Source: a virus. Taken from it: DNA of 64,000 bases. Below, one piece after another: positions 2,631 to 45,967 of this stretch. The stretch covers positions 126,603 through 190,602 of the IMG/VR virus record IMGVR_UViG_3300027749_000039. One strand, written 5' to 3'. The translations under genes were made by a program, and so were the position numbers. The first letter of the stretch is position 1; every line of letters begins with the position of its first letter. The notes beneath the pieces are model-generated. The model ran no database searches. It was not told where the DNA came from and worked only from the letters and a program-made list of their open reading frames with translations.

Positions 2631-2767
2631 AAAATATACGAAAAAGTTTTTAAAAACTTTGAAAATTAAAAACTTTTTCGTATTTTTGCTTAAAATAATA
2701 ACAAAAAGAAAAAAAAGCACTTTTAGAATATAATATATATAATTATACGAAAAAAACAAAAATAATT

Positions 2768-2798
2768 TTTGTAAATAAAAAACTTTTTCGTATCTTTG
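2768..2798 (+). promoter_or_regulatory. Bacteroidota sigma70-type promoter (TTTG-N19-TATCTTTG) for the Met/His/Trp/Phe/Ser/Lys tRNA-serS unit
   Basis: Matches the -33 TTTG / -7 TAnnTTTG consensus with a 19 nt spacer. Confidence 0.8.
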
Positions 2799-2831
2799 TT
2801 GTATAATAACAAACAATAAGAAATTAAATAT

Positions 2832-2903
2832 AGCGGGATAGAGCAGTGGTAGCTCGCAAGGCTCATAACCTTGAGGTCATTGGTTCGAATCCAGTTCCTG
2901 CTT
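2832..2903 (+). tRNA. tRNA-Met(CAT), initiator-like body
   Basis: Cloverleaf, anticodon arm CAAGG-CTCATAA-CCTTG, fMet-like GAGCAG..GGTAGCTCG D arm; A1:U72 paired. Confidence 0.9.
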
Positions 2904-2918
2904 CAAAAAAAGACATAT

Positions 2919-2990
2919 TGCGGAGTAGAGCAGTGGTAGCTCGCAAGGCTCATAACCTTGAGGTCGTTGGTTCGAATCCAGCCTCCGTTA
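2919..2990 (+). tRNA. tRNA-fMet(CAT), second copy
   Basis: Same D/anticodon arms as copy 1; U1xU72 mismatch, A73. Confidence 0.9.
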
Positions 2991-3029
2991 CTAAAAAATT
3001 AAAAACAATAACAACTTAAAAATTATTTT

Positions 3030-3119
3030 ATGAAACATTTCAGCTCACATAAACATTCGTTTAAATTCTGGTTTAGCAATCAGGGTTCGGTAGAGTTTTG
3101 TTTCAAAAATGCTTCATAA
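3030..3119 (+). CDS. Attenuator leader peptide L1: MKHFSSHKHSFKFWFSNQGSVEFCFKNAS
   Basis: 3 His, 6 Phe, 1 Trp, 6 Ser; directly upstream of a terminator and His/Trp/Phe/Ser tRNAs. Confidence 0.85.
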   Translation: MKHFSSHKHSFKFWFSNQGSVEFCFKNAS

Positions 3120-3138
3120 GAAGTTATTGAAATGAACT

Positions 3139-3179
3139 AAAAATCTCCGAACTTTATATAAAGTTCGGAGATTTTTTTT
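3139..3179 (+). terminator. Intrinsic terminator of attenuator L1
   Basis: AAAAATCTCCGAACTT-TATATA-AAGTTCGGAGATTTTTTTT. Confidence 0.9.
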
Positions 3180-3183
3180 ATAT

Positions 3184-3257
3184 GGTGATATTGGTGTTAG
3201 CGGTTAGCATGGGACCCTGTGAAGGTCTAGGGACGGATTCGAATTCCGTATATCACC
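3184..3257 (+). tRNA. tRNA-His(GTG)
   Basis: GGACC-CTGTGAA-GGTCT; encoded G-1 opposite C73. Confidence 0.9.
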
Positions 3258-3327
3258 CAAGAAAAGGTAGATTAAACAAAGAAATTATTTAATTGAAACT
3301 AGTATAGATTAAATAATCGTATTGATG

Positions 3328-3379
3328 GTAAAGGTAAGCGGTTAAGCGGAAGATAGTGGTTCGAATCCACTCCTTTTCA
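3328..3379 (+). ncRNA. tRNA-like unit lacking an anticodon arm
   Basis: Acceptor GTAAAGG/CCTTTTC, perfect T arm AGTGG-TTCGAAT-CCACT, only 20 nt between them. Confidence 0.5.
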
Positions 3380-3390
3380 CGAAATAATAT

Positions 3391-3464
3391 GGTGATTGTA
3401 GCTCAATTGGTAGAGCGCAGGTTTGTGGAACCTGAGGTAGCGGGGTCGGAGCTCGTCAATCACC
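3391..3464 (+). tRNA. tRNA-His(GTG), second copy
   Basis: CAGGT-TTGTGGA-ACCTG; G-1:C73; atypical T loop GTCGGAG. Confidence 0.85.
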
Positions 3465-3469
3465 CAATA

Positions 3470-3542
3470 AGGTAATCAAGCTAACTTGGTAACGTGGGAG
3501 ATTCCAACCCTCCAGTCGTCGGATCGTAACCGGCTGTTCGTG
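3470..3542 (+). pseudogene. Degenerate tRNA-Trp(CCA)-like unit
   Basis: Anticodon loop TTCCAAC, intact T arm and G73, but the 5' acceptor strand does not pair. Confidence 0.45.
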
Positions 3543-3553
3543 CAAAATAAAAT

Positions 3554-3626
3554 ACGGGTATGGTGAAAATGGCTATCATTTTTGTCTCCAAAACAAAAGT
3601 TCCGGATTCGAATTCTGGTGCCCGTG
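3554..3626 (+). tRNA. tRNA-Trp(CCA)
   Basis: TTTGT-CTCCAAA-ACAAA; ACGGGTA/TGCCCGT; G73. Confidence 0.9.
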
Positions 3627-3633
3627 CTAAAAT

Positions 3634-3705
3634 GGTGTTGTAACATAGAGGTTTATGTGTTGATCTGAAAAATCAAAAATGCCAGATCGTTACTGGCCGA
3701 CACCA
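3634..3705 (+). tRNA. tRNA-Phe(GAA)
   Basis: TTGAT-CTGAAAA-ATCAA; A73; T loop ATCGTTA. Confidence 0.85.
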
Positions 3706-3768
3706 CAAAAATAAATTAAAAAAGGAAGACGCACCCATTTTATATATAAGTAAATAACAAATATAAAA

Positions 3769-4647
3769 ATGGGTGCGAATTCAAAAGAATGGACAGAAAA
3801 GGAAAAAGAAATACTTTTTAAATATTTTCCGAGTATGGGTAGTAATTATTGTTCAGAATTAACAGGAAGAACAAAAAGAGCTTGTCAAGAAATGGCAAAA
3901 AAATTAAAATTGAAGAGAGATTTAGATAAGTATGAAGATAAAGAAAAATTAGAGGAGTTAGTTAAAGGTTGTAAATCATATACAGAATGTGTAATAAAAT
4001 TGGGGTTATCTCCCAGATGTTCTGGTAATTTTCAGACTATCAAAAAATATATCACAATATATAATATAGATATTTCACATTTTGAAAATGGATTTCAAAT
4101 AGGCAACAAACCTCAAAATAAGAAAGAATTATCAGAAGTTTTAATAGAAAACTCTTTTTTTAGCAGAACTCATCTTAAAGAGAGACTATATAAAGAGGAA
4201 TTAAAAAAGAAAGAATGTGAGATATGTGGAATTGGTGAAGATTGGTTTAATGGAACTAAAATAGTCCATATTTTAGACCATATAAATGGTGAGCCTTATG
4301 ATAATCGTCTTGAAAATTTAAGAATCGTTTGTCCTAATTGTAATTCAACATTAGAAACAAATTGTGTTGGGAATAAAGTTAATAAAATATATGATTCTAA
4401 AAAAGATGAATATAAAAGTGAAAAAACACATAAAAAATGTAATTGTGGTAAAATAATTTTGAAAGAAAGTAAATTTTGTTCAGAATGCAATGCCAAAAGT
4501 AAAAGAAAAATTATTAATAGACCAACATTTGAAGAATTAGTTAAGTTAATAGAAGAAAATGGTAATACTGGAACAGGTAAAATATACGGCGTTAGCGAAG
4601 CTGTCATAAGAAAATGGTTAAAACAATATAAAAATAAATTAGTATAG
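3769..4647 (+). mobile_element. HNH homing endonuclease inside tRNA cluster 1
   Basis: CEICG...LDHINGEPYDNRLENLRIVCPNCNS; C-terminal RPTFEEL..YGVSEAVIRKW HTH; N-terminal Myb-like repeat. Confidence 0.9.
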
Positions 4648-4660
4648 AATATACTAAAAT

Positions 4661-4735
4661 ACAGACTAGTCTATGGTAGTCGGCGGAACTCCAAATCCCG
4701 TGTGACTCGAGTCAGTTCAATTCTGGCAGTCTGTG
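4661..4735 (+). tRNA. tRNA-Trp(CCA), second
   Basis: Loop CTCCAAA, acceptor ACAGACT/AGTCTGT, G73; one mismatch in the anticodon stem. Confidence 0.7.
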
Positions 4736-4745
4736 CTAATAAATT

Positions 4746-4829
4746 GGAAAGTCCTAATTAGGAGTAGTTAGCCGTTTTGAAAACGGTGAAGGTGTAATAG
4801 CCGTGGGGGTTCGAGTCCGTCACTTTCCG
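4746..4829 (+). tRNA. tRNA-Ser(TGA)
   Basis: GCCGT-TTTGAAA-ACGGT, long variable arm, G73. Confidence 0.8.
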
Positions 4830-4840
4830 CAAAATAAAAT

Positions 4841-4918
4841 ACGGGTTTCGTCTAATATTTAAGACACCTCCCGGCAAGGGAGTTAATGTTGTAAGGGTGA
4901 AAATCCTACAACCCGTGC
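4841..4918 (+). pseudogene. tRNA-like unit with unassignable anticodon loop
   Basis: Acceptor ACGGGTT/AACCCGT plus G73 (Trp-like), D stem GTCT/AGAC, loop GGCAAG (6 nt), T loop GTGAAAA. Confidence 0.45.
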
Positions 4919-4933
4919 AAAAAGATTAAAATT

Positions 4934-4969
4934 ATGAAACAATATAAACAGATTAAACAAAAACAATAA
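4934..4969 (+). CDS. Lys-rich mini leader peptide MKQYKQIKQKQ
   Basis: 4 AAA codons in 11, directly upstream of three tRNA-Lys genes; followed by two mutually exclusive hairpins. Confidence 0.6.
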   Translation: MKQYKQIKQKQ

Positions 4970-5001
4970 GTTAGGCTCCTATGGATGCTTAACAAATATA
5001 A

Positions 5002-5076
5002 GCATTCGTAACTCAGAGGCAGAGTATTCGGCTTTTAACCGAAGTGGCGAGATTTCAAAATTCTCCGGATGCACCA
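5002..5076 (+). tRNA. tRNA-Lys(TTT), CCA encoded
   Basis: TTCGG-CTTTTAA-CCGAA. Confidence 0.9.
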
Positions 5077-5079
5077 AAA

Positions 5080-5151
5080 CCGCTTGTAGCAAACTGGTGT
5101 AGGCAAGAGTCTTTTAAACTCTGGGGCTGGGTTCGACTCCCGGCAGGCGGA
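5080..5151 (+). tRNA. tRNA-Lys(TTT), second
   Basis: AGAGT-CTTTTAA-ACTCT. Confidence 0.9.
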
Positions 5152-5156
5152 CAATA

Positions 5157-5228
5157 GATTTTATATGTCAATGGTTAGACTAGCAGACTCTTAATCTGCG
5201 GATCTGAGTTCGAGTCTCAGTGAAATCA
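5157..5228 (+). tRNA. tRNA-Lys(CTT)
   Basis: GCAGA-CTCTTAA-TCTGC. Confidence 0.9.
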
Positions 5229-5244
5229 CAAAAAATTTTTAAAA

Positions 5245-6513
5245 ATGTTAGAAATAAAATTATTTAGGCAAAATAAGGACCTAATTATAGAAGGACTTAA
5301 AAAGAAAAATTTTAAGCAACTTAATTTAGTTGATGAAATTATTAAATTGGATGAAGATTTAAGAAAATTAAAACAGGAAACTGAAAATTTAACTTCTGTT
5401 ATTAATAAAAATAATAGCGAAATTGCAAGATATATTAAAACAGATGCAGTTAAGGTAGAAAATATTAAAACTCATAATATTATTTTAAATGAAAAAATTG
5501 AGGAATTAACTAATATACTAAATCAAACTGAAAACGAGTTATTGGATAATTTAATTCAATTACCAAATCTTCCAAATCAAATTGTAGAAATAGACAATGG
5601 TAATGAAGCAACTAATGGTAATGTTATTATAAGAGAAAACTTAACTCAGTGTACACAAGGTAAACCTCATTGGGAAGTAATTAAAGATTTAAATATAGTT
5701 AGTTTTGAACTAGGAACTAAAATTACTGGTGCTGGGTTTCCTGTTTATATCGGAAAAGGCGCAAGATTACAAAGAGCTTTAATTCAATATTTTTTAGATT
5801 ATAATACTAATGCTGGTTATACAGAATATAATATACCATTAATGGTTAATTATGATTCTGCATATGGTACAGGACAACTCCCTGATAAAGAAGGTCAAAT
5901 GTATTATGCTGAAAAGGATAATTTATACTTAATTCCAACAGCAGAAGTTCCTTTAACTAATATCTTTAGAGATGAAATAGTTAATTTGCCCATAAAAATG
6001 ACAGGACATAGTGCTTGTTTTAGAAGAGAAGCTGGCGCACATGGTAAAGAAGTAAGAGGGTTAAATCGAGTTCATCAATTTGAAAAAGTTGAAATAGTTC
6101 AATTAGTTCAACCTGATAAAAGTTATGAAGTATTGGAAGAAATGGTTTTACATGTTGAGAACTTGATAAAAAGCTTAGAATTACCATATAGAATACTTAA
6201 ATTAAGTGGCACAGATATGAGTTTTGCATCTGCTTTAACTTATGACTTTGAAGTATATAGTGCGGCTCAAGACAGATGGTTAGAAGTAAGTTCTGTGAGT
6301 AATTTTGAAACTTTCCAATCTAATCGTATGAAAATTAGATTTAAAGAAGATAAAAAGAACAAATTAGTTCATACTTTAAATGGAAGTTCTTTAGCATTAC
6401 CAAGAATAATGGCTTGCTTATTAGAAAATAATCAAACACATGAAGGTATAAAAATACCAGAAGTATTAATACCGTATTACGGTGACAAATTTTTAACAAA
6501 TGGAAAATTATAA
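5245..6513 (+). CDS. serS: Seryl-tRNA synthetase
   Basis: N-terminal coiled coil, LIPTAEVPL, CFRREAG..RGLNRVHQFEKVE, HTLNGSSLALPR. Confidence 0.97.
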   Translation: MLEIKLFRQNKDLIIEGLKKKNFKQLNLVDEIIKLDEDLRKLKQETENLTSVINKNNSEIARYIKTDAVKVENIKTHNIILNEKIEELTNILNQTENELLDNLIQLPNLPNQIVEIDNGNEATNGNVIIRENLTQCTQGKPHWEVIKDLNIVSFELGTKITGAGFPVYIGKGARLQRALIQYFLDYNTNAGYTEYNIPLMVNYDSAYGTGQLPDKEGQMYYAEKDNLYLIPTAEVPLTNIFRDEIVNLPIKMTGHSACFRREAGAHGKEVRGLNRVHQFEKVEIVQLVQPDKSYEVLEEMVLHVENLIKSLELPYRILKLSGTDMSFASALTYDFEVYSAAQDRWLEVSSVSNFETFQSNRMKIRFKEDKKNKLVHTLNGSSLALPRIMACLLENNQTHEGIKIPEVLIPYYGDKFLTNGKL

Positions 6514-6745
6514 AAAATTAATAGAGAAATATAAAGTTGAAATAGTAGATTATATTATTTCTTCAAAAGACCAATTAGAAGAATACCGTAAAAAGTATTT
6601 AGGCGCAAATGGAATTATAAAACAAGTTTATAATCAATTAAAACAAGTTCCTGCTGAAAAAAGAAAACAAGCAGGAGAATTGTTAAGAGGATTAAAAGAT
6701 TGTGCTGAAAATAAATATGAAAATTCTTTTGTTAATTCAAAATAA
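6500..6745 (+). CDS. Stand-alone PheRS alpha-subunit N-terminal coiled-coil domain
   Basis: LEEYRKKYLGANGIIKQVYNQLKQVPAEKRKQAGELL matches the PheS N-terminal pattern (..RvkYLGkkG..l..lp.eeR..aG..lN); no catalytic domain follows. Confidence 0.7.
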   Translation: MENYKKLIEKYKVEIVDYIISSKDQLEEYRKKYLGANGIIKQVYNQLKQVPAEKRKQAGELLRGLKDCAENKYENSFVNSK

Positions 6746-6758
6746 TTTCGTATCTTTG
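6728..6758 (+). promoter_or_regulatory. Bacteroidota-type promoter for the Ser/Arg tRNA cluster
   Basis: TTTG-N19-TATCTTTG. Confidence 0.8.
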
Positions 6759-6807: not shown

Positions 6808-6864
6808 ATGAAAACAATATCATCGTCTAGTCGCAGTAGTTTAACTTTGGAAATCCAGAGATGA
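6808..6864 (+). CDS. Attenuator leader peptide L2: MKTISSSSRSSLTLEIQR
   Basis: TCA TCG TCT AGT CGC AGT AGT run upstream of Ser(GCT), Arg(ACG), a Ser-like unit and Ser(GGA). Confidence 0.85.
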   Translation: MKTISSSSRSSLTLEIQR

Positions 6865-16059: not shown

Positions 16060-16158
16060 ATGAAAACTACAATAATCACAACACAAGTAATCGGCGCATA
16101 TGAAGCGGGTTATGCCTATGAGGGAACATCTCATGGAGTTGGTAAGTTATGTAGTTAA
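16060..16158 (+). CDS. Attenuator leader peptide L3: MKTTIITTQVIGAYEAGYAYEGTSHGVGKLCS
   Basis: GAYEAGYAYEG block is composed only of Gly/Ala/Tyr/Glu, the four amino acids of the downstream tRNAs. Confidence 0.88.
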   Translation: MKTTIITTQVIGAYEAGYAYEGTSHGVGKLCS

Positions 16159-17272: not shown

Positions 17273-17908
17273 TTGCATCACACAATTTATAAAATAACCA
17301 ATTTAATAAATGGCAAAATTTATATTGGAAAACACTCAACAAATGATATTAAAGATAACTACTACGGTAGTGGGAAATTAATTAAAAGTGCTATAGAAAA
17401 ATATGGTATTATTAATTTCACAAAAGAAATTTTGTTTAATTTTCAATCAGAGGAAGAAGCTTATGCCAAGGAAAAGGAAATAGTAAATGAAAGTTTCATA
17501 AAAAGAAAAGATGTTTATAACCTTATAATAGGGGGTGATACATTTGAAGCTATTAATTCCAATTTAGAATTAAGAAAAGCTAAAAATAAGAAAGCTGCAT
17601 TAATTATGAATTCTGTAAATTGGAATAATCCAGAATTTAGAAAAAGGCAAACTGATAAAATGATATTACAAAATAAAAAATTGCATAAAGAAGGAATTCT
17701 TAAAAGTGTTGATTGGACCGGAAAGAAACATAAGGATGAAAGCAAAGAGAAAATGAGGGAAAAGGCAAAATTGAGAATAGGTGATAAAAACTCTTCATTT
17801 GGAACTTGTTGGATATATAATGAAAATGAAAGTAAGAAAATAAAAAAAGAAGATTTAGAAAACTACTTATCTATTGGATGGATAAAAGGTAGAAAAATTA
17901 AATTTTAA
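17273..17908 (+). mobile_element. GIY-YIG homing endonuclease (Seg-like, NUMOD3) in tRNA cluster 3; TTG start
   Basis: TIYKITNLINGKIYIGKH..YYGSGKLIKSAIEKYG; TGKKHKDESKEKM. Confidence 0.9.
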
Positions 17909-18858: not shown

Positions 18859-19638
18859 ATGGACGATAACGTCCGCTCCTATGACGAAACAACTCTGTTT
18901 TGTCCTGCAGGAATGTCCCAATACAAATCCTTATTTAAGGATATTAACCACAAGGGAACAATAAGTAATATACAATCTTGCCTTCGTTTAAACGATATGG
19001 AAGAAATAGGTGATGGGAGCCACCTATTGTATTTTAACATGATTGGATTATTCTCGTTTAGAGAAATGACTATACAAGAAGCTATTGACTTTTGGATGGA
19101 ATTTCTCTATAAAATCAATTGTATTCCTGATTACATTACTATTCATCCTGATAAACCTGAATGGCGAGATTTCTATTCTAATTATAATGTTGAAATACGT
19201 TATGATGAAGGGTGTATATGGAGTGACGGAGGTATCGGTGGCTACTGCACTGAATTTTACAAGGATGATATTGAAATAGGTAATATAGTTAATCCGTTAG
19301 GTACTTGTATTGACGCAGGGTGGGGTTTGGAACGTATAGAAATGGTTTTATATAATGAGAGAAAAACAAAAGAAGAAACCTTAATTAATACAATTATGAA
19401 AATGATTGAAAGCGGATTTACACCTACTTACAATAAACAAGGTTCTCTTTTGCGAAAACTTTTAAGAATTTGTTATTTAGAAAAAATAGAAGTTCCGCAT
19501 CAATTTTACCAAGATGAAATTTTGAGACAACAAAAAATTATAGAAAAATATAATAGAATGAAAGAGAAACCTAAGTTTAAAAATATGTCTAAGGAGTTTT
19601 GGTTTAATACTCTTGGTATTGATATAGATTTAATGTGA
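18859..19638 (+). CDS. alaS: Minimal alanyl-tRNA synthetase (catalytic domain only); true start may lie up to ~28 codons upstream
   Basis: DETTLFCPAGMSQYK, QSCLRLND.EEIGDGSHL.YFNMIGLFSF, IEIGNIV, IDAGWGLERI; no editing or C-Ala domain. Confidence 0.85.
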   Translation: MDDNVRSYDETTLFCPAGMSQYKSLFKDINHKGTISNIQSCLRLNDMEEIGDGSHLLYFNMIGLFSFREMTIQEAIDFWMEFLYKINCIPDYITIHPDKPEWRDFYSNYNVEIRYDEGCIWSDGGIGGYCTEFYKDDIEIGNIVNPLGTCIDAGWGLERIEMVLYNERKTKEETLINTIMKMIESGFTPTYNKQGSLLRKLLRICYLEKIEVPHQFYQDEILRQQKIIEKYNRMKEKPKFKNMSKEFWFNTLGIDIDLM

Positions 19639-31677: not shown

Positions 31678-32484
31678 ATGAGACATAAACAAACAGAACA
31701 AACTAAAAAGAAGTTATCAGAAATAAGAAAAAAATGGTTAGCAGATAATCCAGAAAAACATCCATGGAAAAGAAAAGATAAATTCTTATCTAAGCCTTGT
31801 GAATTTTTCAAAAAGAAATTATTGGAAAATAATTTAACTTTTTCGGAAGAACAAAACTTACTTGAAGGAAGAGCATATTCGGTAGATGTAGTTTTTTATG
31901 ATAAAATGATTGGATTTAAAATAAATGGAAATCAACATTATAATTCAGATAAAACTCTTAAAGATTATTATAAAAAAAGGAAAGAAGAGATTGAAATTTT
32001 AGGATGGAAATTATATGATATACATTATACAAAAGTTTATAATGAAAAATTTATAGAGGAAATAATAAAATTCATAAAAGAGCAAAAGGAAATTCCAAAT
32101 TTTAATTTTGAATTTTTTATAAAAAAGGTTAAAAAAATATGTAAAGATTGTGGTAAAGAAATATCATATAATAGCATAGAAAGATGTTTAAAATGTCATA
32201 ATATATCCAGAAGAACAGAAAAATATGAAGTTAATTTAAAATATAAAATAGGTGCTAATAAAAAAGAAAAATTTATAAAAAATTGTAATTGTGGTGAAAT
32301 AATATCCATAAATTCAAATAATTGTAAGGAATGTTTTGATAAAATACAAAGAAAAATAGTTGATAGACCAAGTTTAGAAATTTTATTAGAAGAGGTTAAA
32401 GATATAGGATATAGTGCGGTTGGTAGAAAATATGGAGTTAGTGATAATTCTATAAGAAAGTGGATAAAAAATTATCAAAAATAA
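31678..32484 (+). mobile_element. DUF559/Vsr-like homing endonuclease with C-terminal HTH, in tRNA cluster 4
   Basis: YSVDVVF..IGFKINGNQHY..R....EILGW; RPSLEILLEEV..VGRKYGVSDNSIRKW. Confidence 0.7.
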
Positions 32485-34697: not shown

Positions 34698-35531
34698 ATG
34701 GAAAATAAAAAATTTATTGAAATATGCCAAACAGCCGTAAGTATGGCTGAGGCAGCTAGAATTATAGGAATTGGATTTAATTCTTTTAAGAAAAAAGCAT
34801 TAATATTAAATTGTTATAAAACTAATCAAAATTGGAGAAAAGGTAAAACTGTTTTAAATGATGATAGAATAGAAAGTAAACATACTTTATTTTGTGAAAA
34901 TTCTTCCGCAAGAAGAGAATATATTAAAGGTTTAATTATTAAACATAATTTAATTGAATATAAATGTTTTGATTGTGGATTAAAAAATGAATGGAATGGG
35001 AAAATTTTAAACTTACAGTTAGACCATATAAATGGTGTAAAAAATGATAATAGACTTGAAAATTTAAGATTTATGTGCCCTAATTGTCATTCACAAACAG
35101 AAACATGGTGTAAAAGTAAAGGTAATTCAATAAATAATTTAGATATAGAAATCTTAATTAATACTATAAATAAGTCATTTTCTATGACTAAATTAATTGA
35201 TAAATTAGGAATCTATGATACACAAAATAATAGAAAGAAAATCAAAAAAATAATGATAGAAAATAATCTATCTTTTGAATTTGATAAACAGGAAAAGAAT
35301 AAAATAAATAGTTGTAAGTGTGGTAAATCTATTAAAAAATCAAGTAAAATGTGTTCTAAATGTTGGCAGATAGAACAAAGAAAAGTTAATAGACCTACAT
35401 ATGAGCAGTTAAAAAAAGAAGTAGAAGAAATTGGATATTCAGCAACAGGTAGAAAATATAATGTTTCTGATAATTGCATAAGAAAATGGTTAAAAGCATA
35501 TGTACCCCAATTGGCAGAGGGACACCGTTAA
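34698..35531 (+). mobile_element. HNH homing endonuclease in tRNA cluster 5
   Basis: LQLDHINGVKNDNRLENLRFMCPNCHSQT; C-terminal TGRKYNVSDNCIRKW HTH; 3' end overlaps tRNA-Leu(AAG). Confidence 0.9.
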
Positions 35532-44483: not shown

Positions 44484-44579
44484 ATGAAAAACATTCTAAA
44501 CATACAAAACCCTCAACAACCGCAAGTTGATGTCGATCAGGATCCTGATACGATGAGGACTAACCATGTTAGAATGTAA
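44484..44579 (+). CDS. Attenuator leader peptide L6: MKNILNIQNPQQPQVDVDQDPDTMRTNHVRM
   Basis: 5 Gln, 3 Pro, 4 Asp in codons 8-22. Confidence 0.88.
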   Translation: MKNILNIQNPQQPQVDVDQDPDTMRTNHVRM

Positions 44580-44602
44580 ATGAATTATATTACATTTTTA
44601 AT

Positions 44603-44635
44603 AGCCAGTTAGTCGAAAGATTAACTGGTTTTTTT
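44603..44635 (+). terminator. Intrinsic terminator of attenuator L6
   Basis: AGCCAGTTAGTC-GAAA-GATTAACTGGTT-TTTTT. Confidence 0.9.
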
Positions 44636-44659
44636 GTTTTATATAGCGAGAATTAGTAA

Positions 44660-44748
44660 GGTTACGGCGAATAATGGCTGGTTCGCTACTCTGTCACAGT
44701 AGTAAGTAGGTTAAAACCGAAAAGAGGGTTCGATTCCCTTCGTAACCG
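44660..44748 (+). tRNA. tRNA-Asp(GTC) with long variable arm
   Basis: CTACT-CTGTCAC-AGTAG; G73. Confidence 0.75.
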
Positions 44749-44753
44749 CAAAA

Positions 44754-44827
44754 GGCACCATATATCAATTGGTTAGATTTTCCGCCTGTCACATGGAAGG
44801 CTACGGGTTCGAGCCCCGTTGGTGTCG
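44754..44827 (+). tRNA. tRNA-Asp(GTC), second
   Basis: Loop CTGTCAC, imperfect stem; G73. Confidence 0.8.
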
Positions 44828-44832
44828 CAAAA

Positions 44833-44906
44833 GGTCTGTTAGTAGAAATGGATACAATATCTCCCTGTCACGGAGAAGGTTGCCGGATCGTACCCGGTAC
44901 AGACCG
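44833..44906 (+). tRNA. tRNA-Asp(GTC), third
   Basis: TCTCC-CTGTCAC-GGAGA; G73. Confidence 0.9.
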
Positions 44907-44911
44907 CTAAA

Positions 44912-45037: not shown

Positions 45038-45967
45038 ATGGATATAATTAAAATTATAAATGAAAGTTTTTCCATTAATGATTTAGCCAAAAAATTATAT
45101 GGTTATTCTAATGGCAAGAGCAATAAAAAAGCAATAGAAGTTTTAAAACAAAACGGATTTGATATATCTTTTTTTGACGGAAAAAGTAAAAATAGAAAAT
45201 ATCAAAAAATAAAAATTATTTGTCCTATTTGTTTTGTGGAATTTGAAACAACTGAAAATGGTAAAAAAACATGTTCTTCTTCATGTTCTAATTCTTATTT
45301 TCAACACGGGAAAAATAATCCTGATTTTGATCAAGAAAAATATGAGGAAAGATATAAAAAAGTATCTAATACATTAAAAACTAATATTCCTTGGAATAAA
45401 GGCAAAAATGATAAGGCAAAAATAAAAACATGTCTAAATTGTAAAATTGAATTTGAACCTAAAACACACACACAGAAATATTGTTGCAAAAAATGCCAAT
45501 TTTCATGTAAAGAGTATAGAAAATTATTAAGTGACAATGTTAAAGAAAGAATAAAAAATGGAACACATAAAGGTTGGCAATCAAGAAATATTGAGAGTTA
45601 TCCTGAAAAATTCTTTAAAAAAGTATTAAAAAATAATGGTATTGAATATATACCAAATAAAACAATAATAAAAAAAGACTATAATATAGAAGGCAATGGT
45701 AATTATTTTTTAGATTTTTATATAAAAGAAGGAAATATAGATTTAGAAATAGACGGCAAGCAACATGATTATAGGGTCGAACATGATAATGAACGAGATA
45801 ACAATTTATCAAAGCATTTCAACATTTATAGAATAAAATGGCAGTCAATAAATAGCGAAACAGGAAAACAATATATAAAAAAAGAAATTAAAAAATTTAT
45901 AAAATATTATAACAAAATGAAAAACTTAACTTTACAACAACAGCAACAAATGATTAAACTAGATTGA
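45038..45967 (+). mobile_element. DUF559/Vsr-like homing endonuclease with Zn fingers; last 16 codons are the Gln leader
   Basis: YFLDFY...LEIDGKQHD..R....YRIKW; CPIC, CxxxC motifs. Confidence 0.8.
45917..45967 (+). CDS. Attenuator leader peptide L7: MKNLTLQQQQQMIKLD (in frame with the endonuclease ORF)
   Basis: CAA CAA CAG CAA CAA run, typical MKN start; terminator and three tRNA-Gln follow. Confidence 0.85.
   Translation: MKNLTLQQQQQMIKLD

Follow-up and report, generated by a model that had tools for sequence, protein, structure and literature searches.

A probable multivalent leader-peptide attenuator ahead of a phage tRNA and seryl-tRNA synthetase operon

An array of transfer RNA (tRNA) genes in the virus record IMGVR_UViG_3300027749_000039 stands immediately behind a strong terminator and a very small open reading frame (ORF), and the question raised by this locus is why genes that supply the decoding apparatus should be placed there. 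The DNA examined is the last 64 kb of the 190,602-bp record (64,000 nucleotides, here termed the window), and all coordinates are window positions unless marked otherwise. The small ORF and the RNA segments that follow it are termed L1. L1 is read here as a multivalent leader-peptide attenuator, i.e. a ribosome-mediated transcription attenuator that senses several amino acids at once and gates a phage operon of tRNA and synthetase genes; judged from the sequence, this reading has a probability of about 0.78. The phage would then probably make the gated tRNAs and the seryl-tRNA synthetase (SerRS) only when ribosomes decode the corresponding codons slowly. An attenuator had been proposed at this place by an earlier sequence-only reading, and the proposal is supported by a conserved mini-ORF, a matched codon block, an intrinsic terminator, an antiterminator and covariation in both helices.

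The leader and the genes behind it

The leader ORF (3030..3119, + strand) has 29 codons followed by TAA and encodes MKHFSSHKHSFKFWFSNQGSVEFCFKNAS. Codons 2-16 (3033..3077, + strand) form the regulatory block, and their residues are K, H, F, S and W only. Within this block, AAA is at codons 2, 8 and 12, CAT at 3, 7 and 9, and TGG at 14. The four Phe codons are TTC, TTT, TTC and TTT at 4, 11, 13 and 15, and the Ser codons are AGC at 5 and 16, TCA at 6 and TCG at 10. The three CAT, four Phe and one TGG codons counted by the sequence-only reading among the first 15, and its TCA and TCG Ser codons, are thus all present. Its remark that His and Trp are rare also holds, as they make up 1.5% and 1.2% of residues in the long ORFs of the genome. 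K, H, F, S and W together account for 24% of these residues, so that 15 such codons in succession have P = 5e-10 per position. When runs of at least 10 codons were sought in six frames over the 190,602 bases, the L1 block was the longest K/H/F/S/W run except for a poly-Ser tract.

The genes that follow on the + strand carry the same set of amino acids. They are tRNA-His(GUG) at 3185-3258, a second tRNA-His(GUG) at 3392-3465, tRNA-Trp(CCA) at 3554-3627, tRNA-Phe(GAA) at 3634-3706, a second tRNA-Trp(CCA) at 4661-4736, and tRNA-Ser(UGA) at 4746-4830. All of these had been listed from the sequence alone; the His, Trp and Phe genes were recovered by ARAGORN, and the tRNA-Ser(UGA) by ARAGORN at a lowered threshold only, with a weak Rfam match. 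The coordinates given there stop at 3705, but the unit continues with two tRNA-Lys(UUU) genes (5002-5076 and 5080-5152), a tRNA-Lys(CUU) (5157-5229), the SerRS gene (5245-6513; Pfam tRNA-synt_2b 1.2e-36, Seryl_tRNA_N 9e-16) and an 81-amino-acid fragment representing the N-terminal domain of PheRS (6500-6745; Pfam Phe_tRNA-synt_N 3.5e-13). It ends at ~6745, ahead of the next promoter motif at 6747. Two matches can therefore be added to those first noticed: the three Lys codons of the leader correspond to the three Lys tRNAs further downstream, and its Ser codons are matched by tRNA-Ser(UGA) together with the SerRS gene.

Upstream of the leader, a putative promoter of the unit (2768..2798, + strand) consists of TTTG (2768-2771), 19 nucleotides and TATCTTTG (2791-2798), a form presumed to be that of the Bacteroidota-type -33/-7 consensus of Bacteroides and Flavobacterium promoters. 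It is followed by two tRNA-Met(CAU) genes on the + strand (2832-2904 and 2919-2991; ARAGORN, with Rfam tRNA scores of 66 and 63 bits). As these are transcribed ahead of the attenuator, they are outside its gating. Inspected by eye for initiator character, the second displays a 1:72 mismatch and neither has the three G:C pairs in the anticodon stem.

Alternative helices and their conservation

The intrinsic terminator (3139..3179, + strand) has a 17-bp stem formed by 3139-3155 and 3160-3176, an ATAT loop and a U8 tract at 3172-3179, with a calculated stability of -21 kcal/mol. It ends 5 nucleotides upstream of the tRNA-His at 3185, which leaves no space for an independent promoter before the first tRNA. 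The 5′ strand of the antiterminator, segment 2 (3082..3099, + strand), is located directly 3′ of the codon block; it resembles the 3′ arm of the terminator and pairs with 3139-3155. The pairing of GGGTTCGGTAGAGTTTT at 3083-3099 with the terminator 5′ arm AAAATCTCCGAACTT (3140-3154), first pointed out from the letters alone, is borne out. For 3081-3100 paired with 3139-3155, RNAduplex calculates -14.2 kcal/mol; among 500 length-matched segments drawn at random from the genome, 0.2% form a duplex this stable (control p = 0.002).

Two further hairpins are found in the leader transcript. Hairpin 1:2 (3064..3087, + strand), in which 3064-3073 pairs with 3078-3087 at -6.3 kcal/mol in the minimum free energy fold, also appears in the consensus that RNAalifold gives for 11 sequences, where one of its pairs covaries. 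The 3′ strand of this hairpin and the antiterminator strand overlap, which ties the end of the regulatory block to the beginning of the antiterminator. Weak as it is, hairpin 1:2 is a candidate anti-antiterminator or pause hairpin. An internal hairpin surrounds the stop codon (3097..3136, + strand, -9.9 kcal/mol). It corresponds to a hairpin that had been placed at 3094-3138 and described as a competitor; the hairpin exists, but in the stalled-ribosome fold it is nested inside the antiterminator and does not compete with it.

The start-codon region UGAAACAU (3031-3038) can also pair with AUGUUUCA / UUGUUUCA inside the leader (3101-3108). In RNAalifold, six of the eight pairs of this helix are invariant, the outer two are broken in a few sequences, and there is almost no covariation. 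Such pairing could shut off re-initiation once the leader has been fully transcribed.

Homologues of L1 were collected from contigs with the closest SerRS proteins and by scanning viral and metagenome contigs for exact pattern matches. Eleven distinct ones were found, from uncultured freshwater (metagenomic) phages whose SerRS proteins are 66-89% identical. They share an order of one or two Met tRNAs, leader, terminator and, within 3-10 nucleotides, tRNA-His; the Met tRNA position upstream of the leader is filled by one or two genes in L005, L007, L012, L014, L015, L016 and L018. The arrays contain His, Phe, Trp, Ser(UGA) and Lys tRNAs, usually with SerRS next and in some cases with a full PheRS alpha subunit. 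The leader ORF has 29-30 codons in the 11 homologues, all length differences are 3-nucleotide in-frame insertions or deletions, and the stop codon is kept 19-25 nucleotides upstream of the terminator. The order of the block varies (KHSFKFWFS vs KHFSKSWFS, with SFKF changed to FSKS) and the K/H/F/S/W set is kept. Over its first 75 nucleotides the leader is 99% identical where SerRS DNA identity is 90%, and 75% identical where it is 72%.

Both helices display compensatory change. In the terminator helix 98.7% of cells across the homologues are paired and six pairs are compensated, a result not equalled in any of 500 shuffles. In the antiterminator helix 95.5% of cells are paired, vs 19-55% in slid registers, and compensatory G:C to A:U changes are found at 3089:3148 in L012 and L014 and at 3085:3152 in L019; in 8 of 500 shuffles the antiterminator covariation score was reached. 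Conservation is much stronger in the inner part of the terminator 5′ arm (CCGAAC), which pairs with the leader as well, than in the outer stem, where compensated drift is seen.

These comparisons bear on an explanation in which the hairpin serves the processing or stability of a long tRNA precursor, for instance as a protective 3′ end or an RNase site, and the mini-ORF encodes a small functional peptide. Precursors of tRNAs are heavily processed, and the tail of the peptide, GSV..CF, is fairly conserved. The conserved GSV codons, however, coincide with the antiterminator strand, so that their constraint is explained at the RNA level, and the permutation of SFKF to FSKS is not expected of a functional peptide. 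Moreover, a GC-cored 17-bp stem with a U8 tract right behind it is the signature of an intrinsic terminator. This explanation is considered extremely unlikely.

Sister units, the proposed switch and known attenuators

Besides L1, the window has six sister attenuators, each with a leader that matches its own tRNA array. Their leaders are at 6808 (Ser/Arg), 16060 (a G/A/Y/E run, for Gly, Ala, Tyr and Glu), 31207 (an N/I/R/T/L/V/C run, for Asn, Ile, Arg, Thr, Leu, Val and Cys), 34432 (an L/M/N run, for Leu, Met and Asn), 44484 (Pro/Gln/Asp) and 45917-45967 (Gln; MKNLTLQQQQQMIKLD). The leaders at 16060, 31207, 34432 and 45917 are the longest or the only long runs of their sets in six frames of the whole genome, and each is followed by a terminator and then by tRNA arrays for exactly its amino acids; the arrangement is the same at 6808 and 44484. 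The motif TTNGTATNTTTG, which has 49 occurrences vs 18.8 expected, heads the sister units at 6747, 16001, 31111, 34368 and 44398.

The correspondence between leaders and arrays is specific. Assignment of the seven leaders to their own arrays is the single best of 5040 permutations, matching 78 of 167 codons vs a mean of 27, and when the 3′ part of each leader is paired with the terminator arms of the seven attenuators, the cognate combination again stands alone at the top of the 5040 permutations. Sister leaders are also kept in relatives, with Ser/Arg leaders before Ser/Arg arrays and Pro/Gln/Asp leaders before Pro/Asp arrays. Leaders with QQQQQ in relatives precede Gln tRNAs and GlnRS, and their terminator stems are unrelated.

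It is against this pattern that a simpler proposal has to be set, namely that the hairpin and U8 tract are a constitutive terminator or leaky insulator of the tRNA-Met unit, the ORF being incidental and the downstream tRNAs arising by unregulated read-through. The terminator does stand directly after the tRNA-Met pair, terminator-like hairpins are frequent in the window (21 vs 6 expected), and translation of the leader is presumed only. Such a proposal does not account for a codon block that is statistically extreme and matches the downstream genes, for an ORF, a frame and an amino-acid set that are kept in 11 homologues despite drift of the outer terminator stem, for a leader strand that covaries with the terminator 5′ arm, or for six further units that follow the same logic with other amino acids. 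It is thus very unlikely.

How the position of a ribosome would affect the choice of helix was modelled by folding the nascent transcript, taken as far as the terminator loop, while a 28-nucleotide ribosome footprint was shifted codon by codon. With the A site at codons 1-15, the terminator 5′ arm is sequestered at 0.7-0.8; at codons 17-27 the value is 0-0.2. The loss of sequestration falls at the end of the regulatory block in seven of seven leaders.

The same folds lend something to the idea of a general translation sensor of ribosome availability or global elongation rate, in which read-through would follow whenever the leader ribosome slows for any reason, as at equilibrium they antiterminate without a ribosome or with one anywhere before codon 16, whatever the codon. 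A general sensor, however, has no need of a block limited to five amino acids that equal those of the downstream genes, nor of seven leaders each spelled in the amino acids of its own array. In relatives, residue order drifts while set membership is kept. Sensing of this unspecific kind is therefore thought improbable.

Amino-acid-specific attenuation is preferred, but several observations weigh against it. Equilibrium folds give the antiterminator with no ribosome (0.7) or with a ribosome on the stop codon (0.6-0.8); as the antiterminator is favoured at equilibrium without a stall, termination in the unstalled state must rest on kinetic or steric effects. The covariation in the antiterminator amounts to about two independent events, and its core is just 7-8 bp in the closest relatives, L005 and L007. 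Both AGC codons of the L1 leader are without a cognate tRNA in the unit and are matched via SerRS only, tRNA-Ser(GCU) being located in the next unit. The leader at 44484 keeps three Pro codons, and no tRNA-Pro was detected in this genome. Lastly, the L1 leader, whose translation is presumed, has no Shine-Dalgarno sequence. The absence of a Shine-Dalgarno sequence is usual in Bacteroidota-type hosts.

The mechanism proposed for L1 presumes that the leader is translated, that translation is coupled to transcription, that the helices form in a kinetic order and that the unit responds to tRNA shortage. Host RNA polymerase would initiate near 2768-2798, transcribe the two Met tRNAs unconditionally and then proceed through the leader, which a ribosome would translate as the polymerase advances. 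Where charged His, Phe, Trp, Lys or Ser tRNA is scarce, the ribosome would stall inside codons 2-16. The stall would melt hairpin 1:2 and leave the segment 3082-3099 free to capture the emerging terminator 5′ arm (3139-3155). With the terminator blocked, transcription would read through into two tRNA-His, two tRNA-Trp, tRNA-Phe, tRNA-Ser(UGA), three tRNA-Lys, SerRS and the PheRS fragment. When decoding is fast, the ribosome would cover 3078-3110 and mask the antiterminator strand, the 3139-3176 hairpin would form, and transcription would end at the U8 tract, 5 nucleotides before tRNA-His. As the products of the unit, tRNAs and a synthetase, would relieve the stall, the result would be a direct negative-feedback loop on decoding capacity.

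A wider and rather doubtful suggestion is that the attenuator bank as a whole represents a decoding-surveillance system of the phage, in which each unit would report on the availability in the cell of a defined subset of tRNAs and, as needed, switch on replacement tRNAs and synthetases. If so, its triggers may include depletion of host tRNAs by anticodon-nuclease defences, or by the host shut-off of the phage itself. Lys and His tRNAs are classic targets of anticodon nucleases. Transcription of phage tRNAs would then be a regulated circuit of counter-defence and homeostasis and not a constitutive patch for codon usage. Genes for tRNAs are textbook cases of growth-rate and stringent control, not of attenuation, and a stall-driven switch for scarce tRNAs would, if real, be the most direct feedback known from decoding speed to tRNA supply. 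It would also account for the dosing of tRNA sets in large phages whose codon usage is AT-rich. The rule that leader composition equals array composition would predict the boundaries and regulation of phage tRNA operons, and such leaders would offer compact, programmable sensors for several amino acids. The 11 L1 homologues and six sister leaders make the idea directly testable.

L1 resembles the trpL, hisL, pheL, leuL and thrL leaders of E. coli and Salmonella in its short, presumably translated leader rich in regulatory codons, its four RNA segments (pairings 2:3 and 3:4, with 1:2 as a candidate), its intrinsic terminator and its proposed read-out of stall position. These classical attenuators control biosynthetic enzymes, whereas L1 precedes tRNA genes and a synthetase gene in a phage; it also differs in that five amino acids would be sensed at once and that two tRNA genes lie upstream on the same transcript. 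Mixed codons, where any one shortage relieves termination, are found in the ilvGMEDA leader (Ile/Val/Leu) and the thr leader (Thr/Ile). In L1, however, the set (His, Phe, Trp, Lys and Ser) is given by the downstream tRNA genes and not by a shared pathway, and unlike the ilv and thr leaders the sensed set differs from unit to unit within one genome. The pheST attenuator with its pheM leader is a likeness of another kind, a gene of the decoding apparatus under leader-peptide control, as the L1 unit holds SerRS and the PheRS fragment. Attenuators have also been predicted for aminoacyl-tRNA synthetase operons (Lopatovskaya, Seliverstov and Lyubetsky 2010, cited in PMC4833913). Such attenuators, like that of pheST, control synthetase genes only, whereas tRNAs are the first and most numerous products of the L1 unit.

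T-box riboswitches are similar in that they sense the supply of a given charged tRNA and antiterminate genes that restore it. No ORF is required by a T-box, which recognizes uncharged tRNA by direct binding, whereas the L1 leader has a conserved reading frame, and no T-box was matched in Rfam at the gathering threshold in the window or at E <=1 over 2700-5300. L1 also lacks sequence or structural homology to the classical leaders: none of the leader families His_leader, Trp_leader, Phe_leader, Leu_leader and Thr_leader reaches gathering in the window, where only tRNA does so; Phe_leader scores 24 bits vs a gathering value of 55 (E = 0.52). The E <=1 scan of 2700-5300 gave no known leader or riboswitch, and weak chance matches to small RNA models over the terminator.

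Leader-peptide attenuation has been reported from transcriptome data in a flavobacterium (PMC9723704), and for operons of amino-acid and synthetase genes attenuation has been documented or predicted, Flavobacteria included (PMC9723704, PMC4833913). No description of leader-peptide attenuation of tRNA genes was found in the full-text literature searched. The novelty of L1 lies in its target, i.e. tRNA genes and a synthetase gene, in a phage, with a set defined by the array; the proposed mechanism is that of classical multivalent attenuation.

Genome setting and minor features

The virus record has a G+C content of 27.9%, and 45 of the 46 tRNA genes detected by ARAGORN in the virus genome fall in the window. 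The sole tRNA outside it, at genome C1:54412-54485, has the anticodon CUA and would read amber codons. Aminoacyl-tRNA synthetases or fragments of them in the window are LeuRS, SerRS, PheRS-N, AlaRS, TyrRS, Asn/AspRS and GlnRS. The AlaRS is a catalytic-core fragment of 259 amino acids at 18859-19638, and the relatives L007, L012 and L013 carry PheRS alpha-like genes of 364-388 amino acids. The nearest bacterial homologues of the phage SerRS and GlnRS are those of Bacteroidota (Chitinophagaceae, Flavipsychrobacter). No close relative is present among GenBank phages by DNA or by SerRS protein (best 42%), so that this phage has no near relative in culture, and a SerRS-based search for related loci in viral contigs gave no match; the contigs closest to this phage come from freshwater-lake metagenomes. 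At the one bacterial serS locus inspected (L023), no host-type Ser leader was evident.

Among the relatives, L014 stands out by size. Its SerRS recurs, along with a related GlnRS, on contigs that reach 726,793 bp. Phage-like gene content and an L1-type leader thus sit on contigs with reported lengths of as much as 0.7 Mb, which would belong to a very large phage unless their assembly is chimeric. In relatives, the Met tRNAs that precede the L1-type leader are flanked by a repeated motif, GGATAAATATCTGG, often in the form ACAGGATAAATATCTGGACA (L005 2013-2061; L014 5532-5545; L015 2458; L017 123; L018 5236); there is none in the 64-kb window.

Two sister units display features of their own. The array behind the Pro/Gln/Asp leader (44484-44907) has three tRNA-Asp genes and no tRNA-Pro; L001, L003 and L022 carry a tRNA-Pro(UGG) in the array behind the corresponding leader, and two tRNA-Pro genes are found in relatives. 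The Gln leader MKNLTLQQQQQMIKLD is in frame with a 309-amino-acid DUF559 endonuclease-like ORF (45038-45967) and forms its C-terminal end. In L001 the Gln leader is a separate ORF, and its ATG overlaps the preceding stop codon (ATGA).

The L1 array also contains what appear to be tRNA relics. One lies between the two tRNA-His genes (3261-3379) and consists of an acceptor stem, GAAAAGG/CCTTTTC, and a T arm, with an Rfam tRNA score of 36.7 bits. It has an insertion of ~45 nucleotides, lacks a clean anticodon arm and is missing at the same place in L005 and L007; an ARAGORN intron model for it (Val-GAC with a 42-nucleotide intron) was rejected as not credible in a bacterial system. A second, recognized by eye between tRNA-Ser(UGA) and the Lys tRNAs (4841-4919), has an acceptor stem ACGGGTT/AACCCGT, D and T arms, and an anticodon hairpin CTCCC-GGCAA-GGGAG whose loop is only 5 nucleotides. 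Another small ORF, MKQYKQIKQKQ (4934-4969), directly precedes the Lys tRNAs; as no terminator follows it, it was rejected as a possible second leader.

Homing-endonuclease-like genes (HNH, GIY-YIG-like and DUF559/REase-like) break up nearly every tRNA array in the window, at 3769-4647, 17273-17908, 31678-32484, 34698-35531 and 45038-45967. The first of these, an HNH-like ORF on the + strand (3769..4647; Pfam HNH/HNH_3, sub-threshold), is inserted in the L1 array and is not at this array position in relatives. The tRNA arrays of relatives have other endonucleases at other insertion sites.

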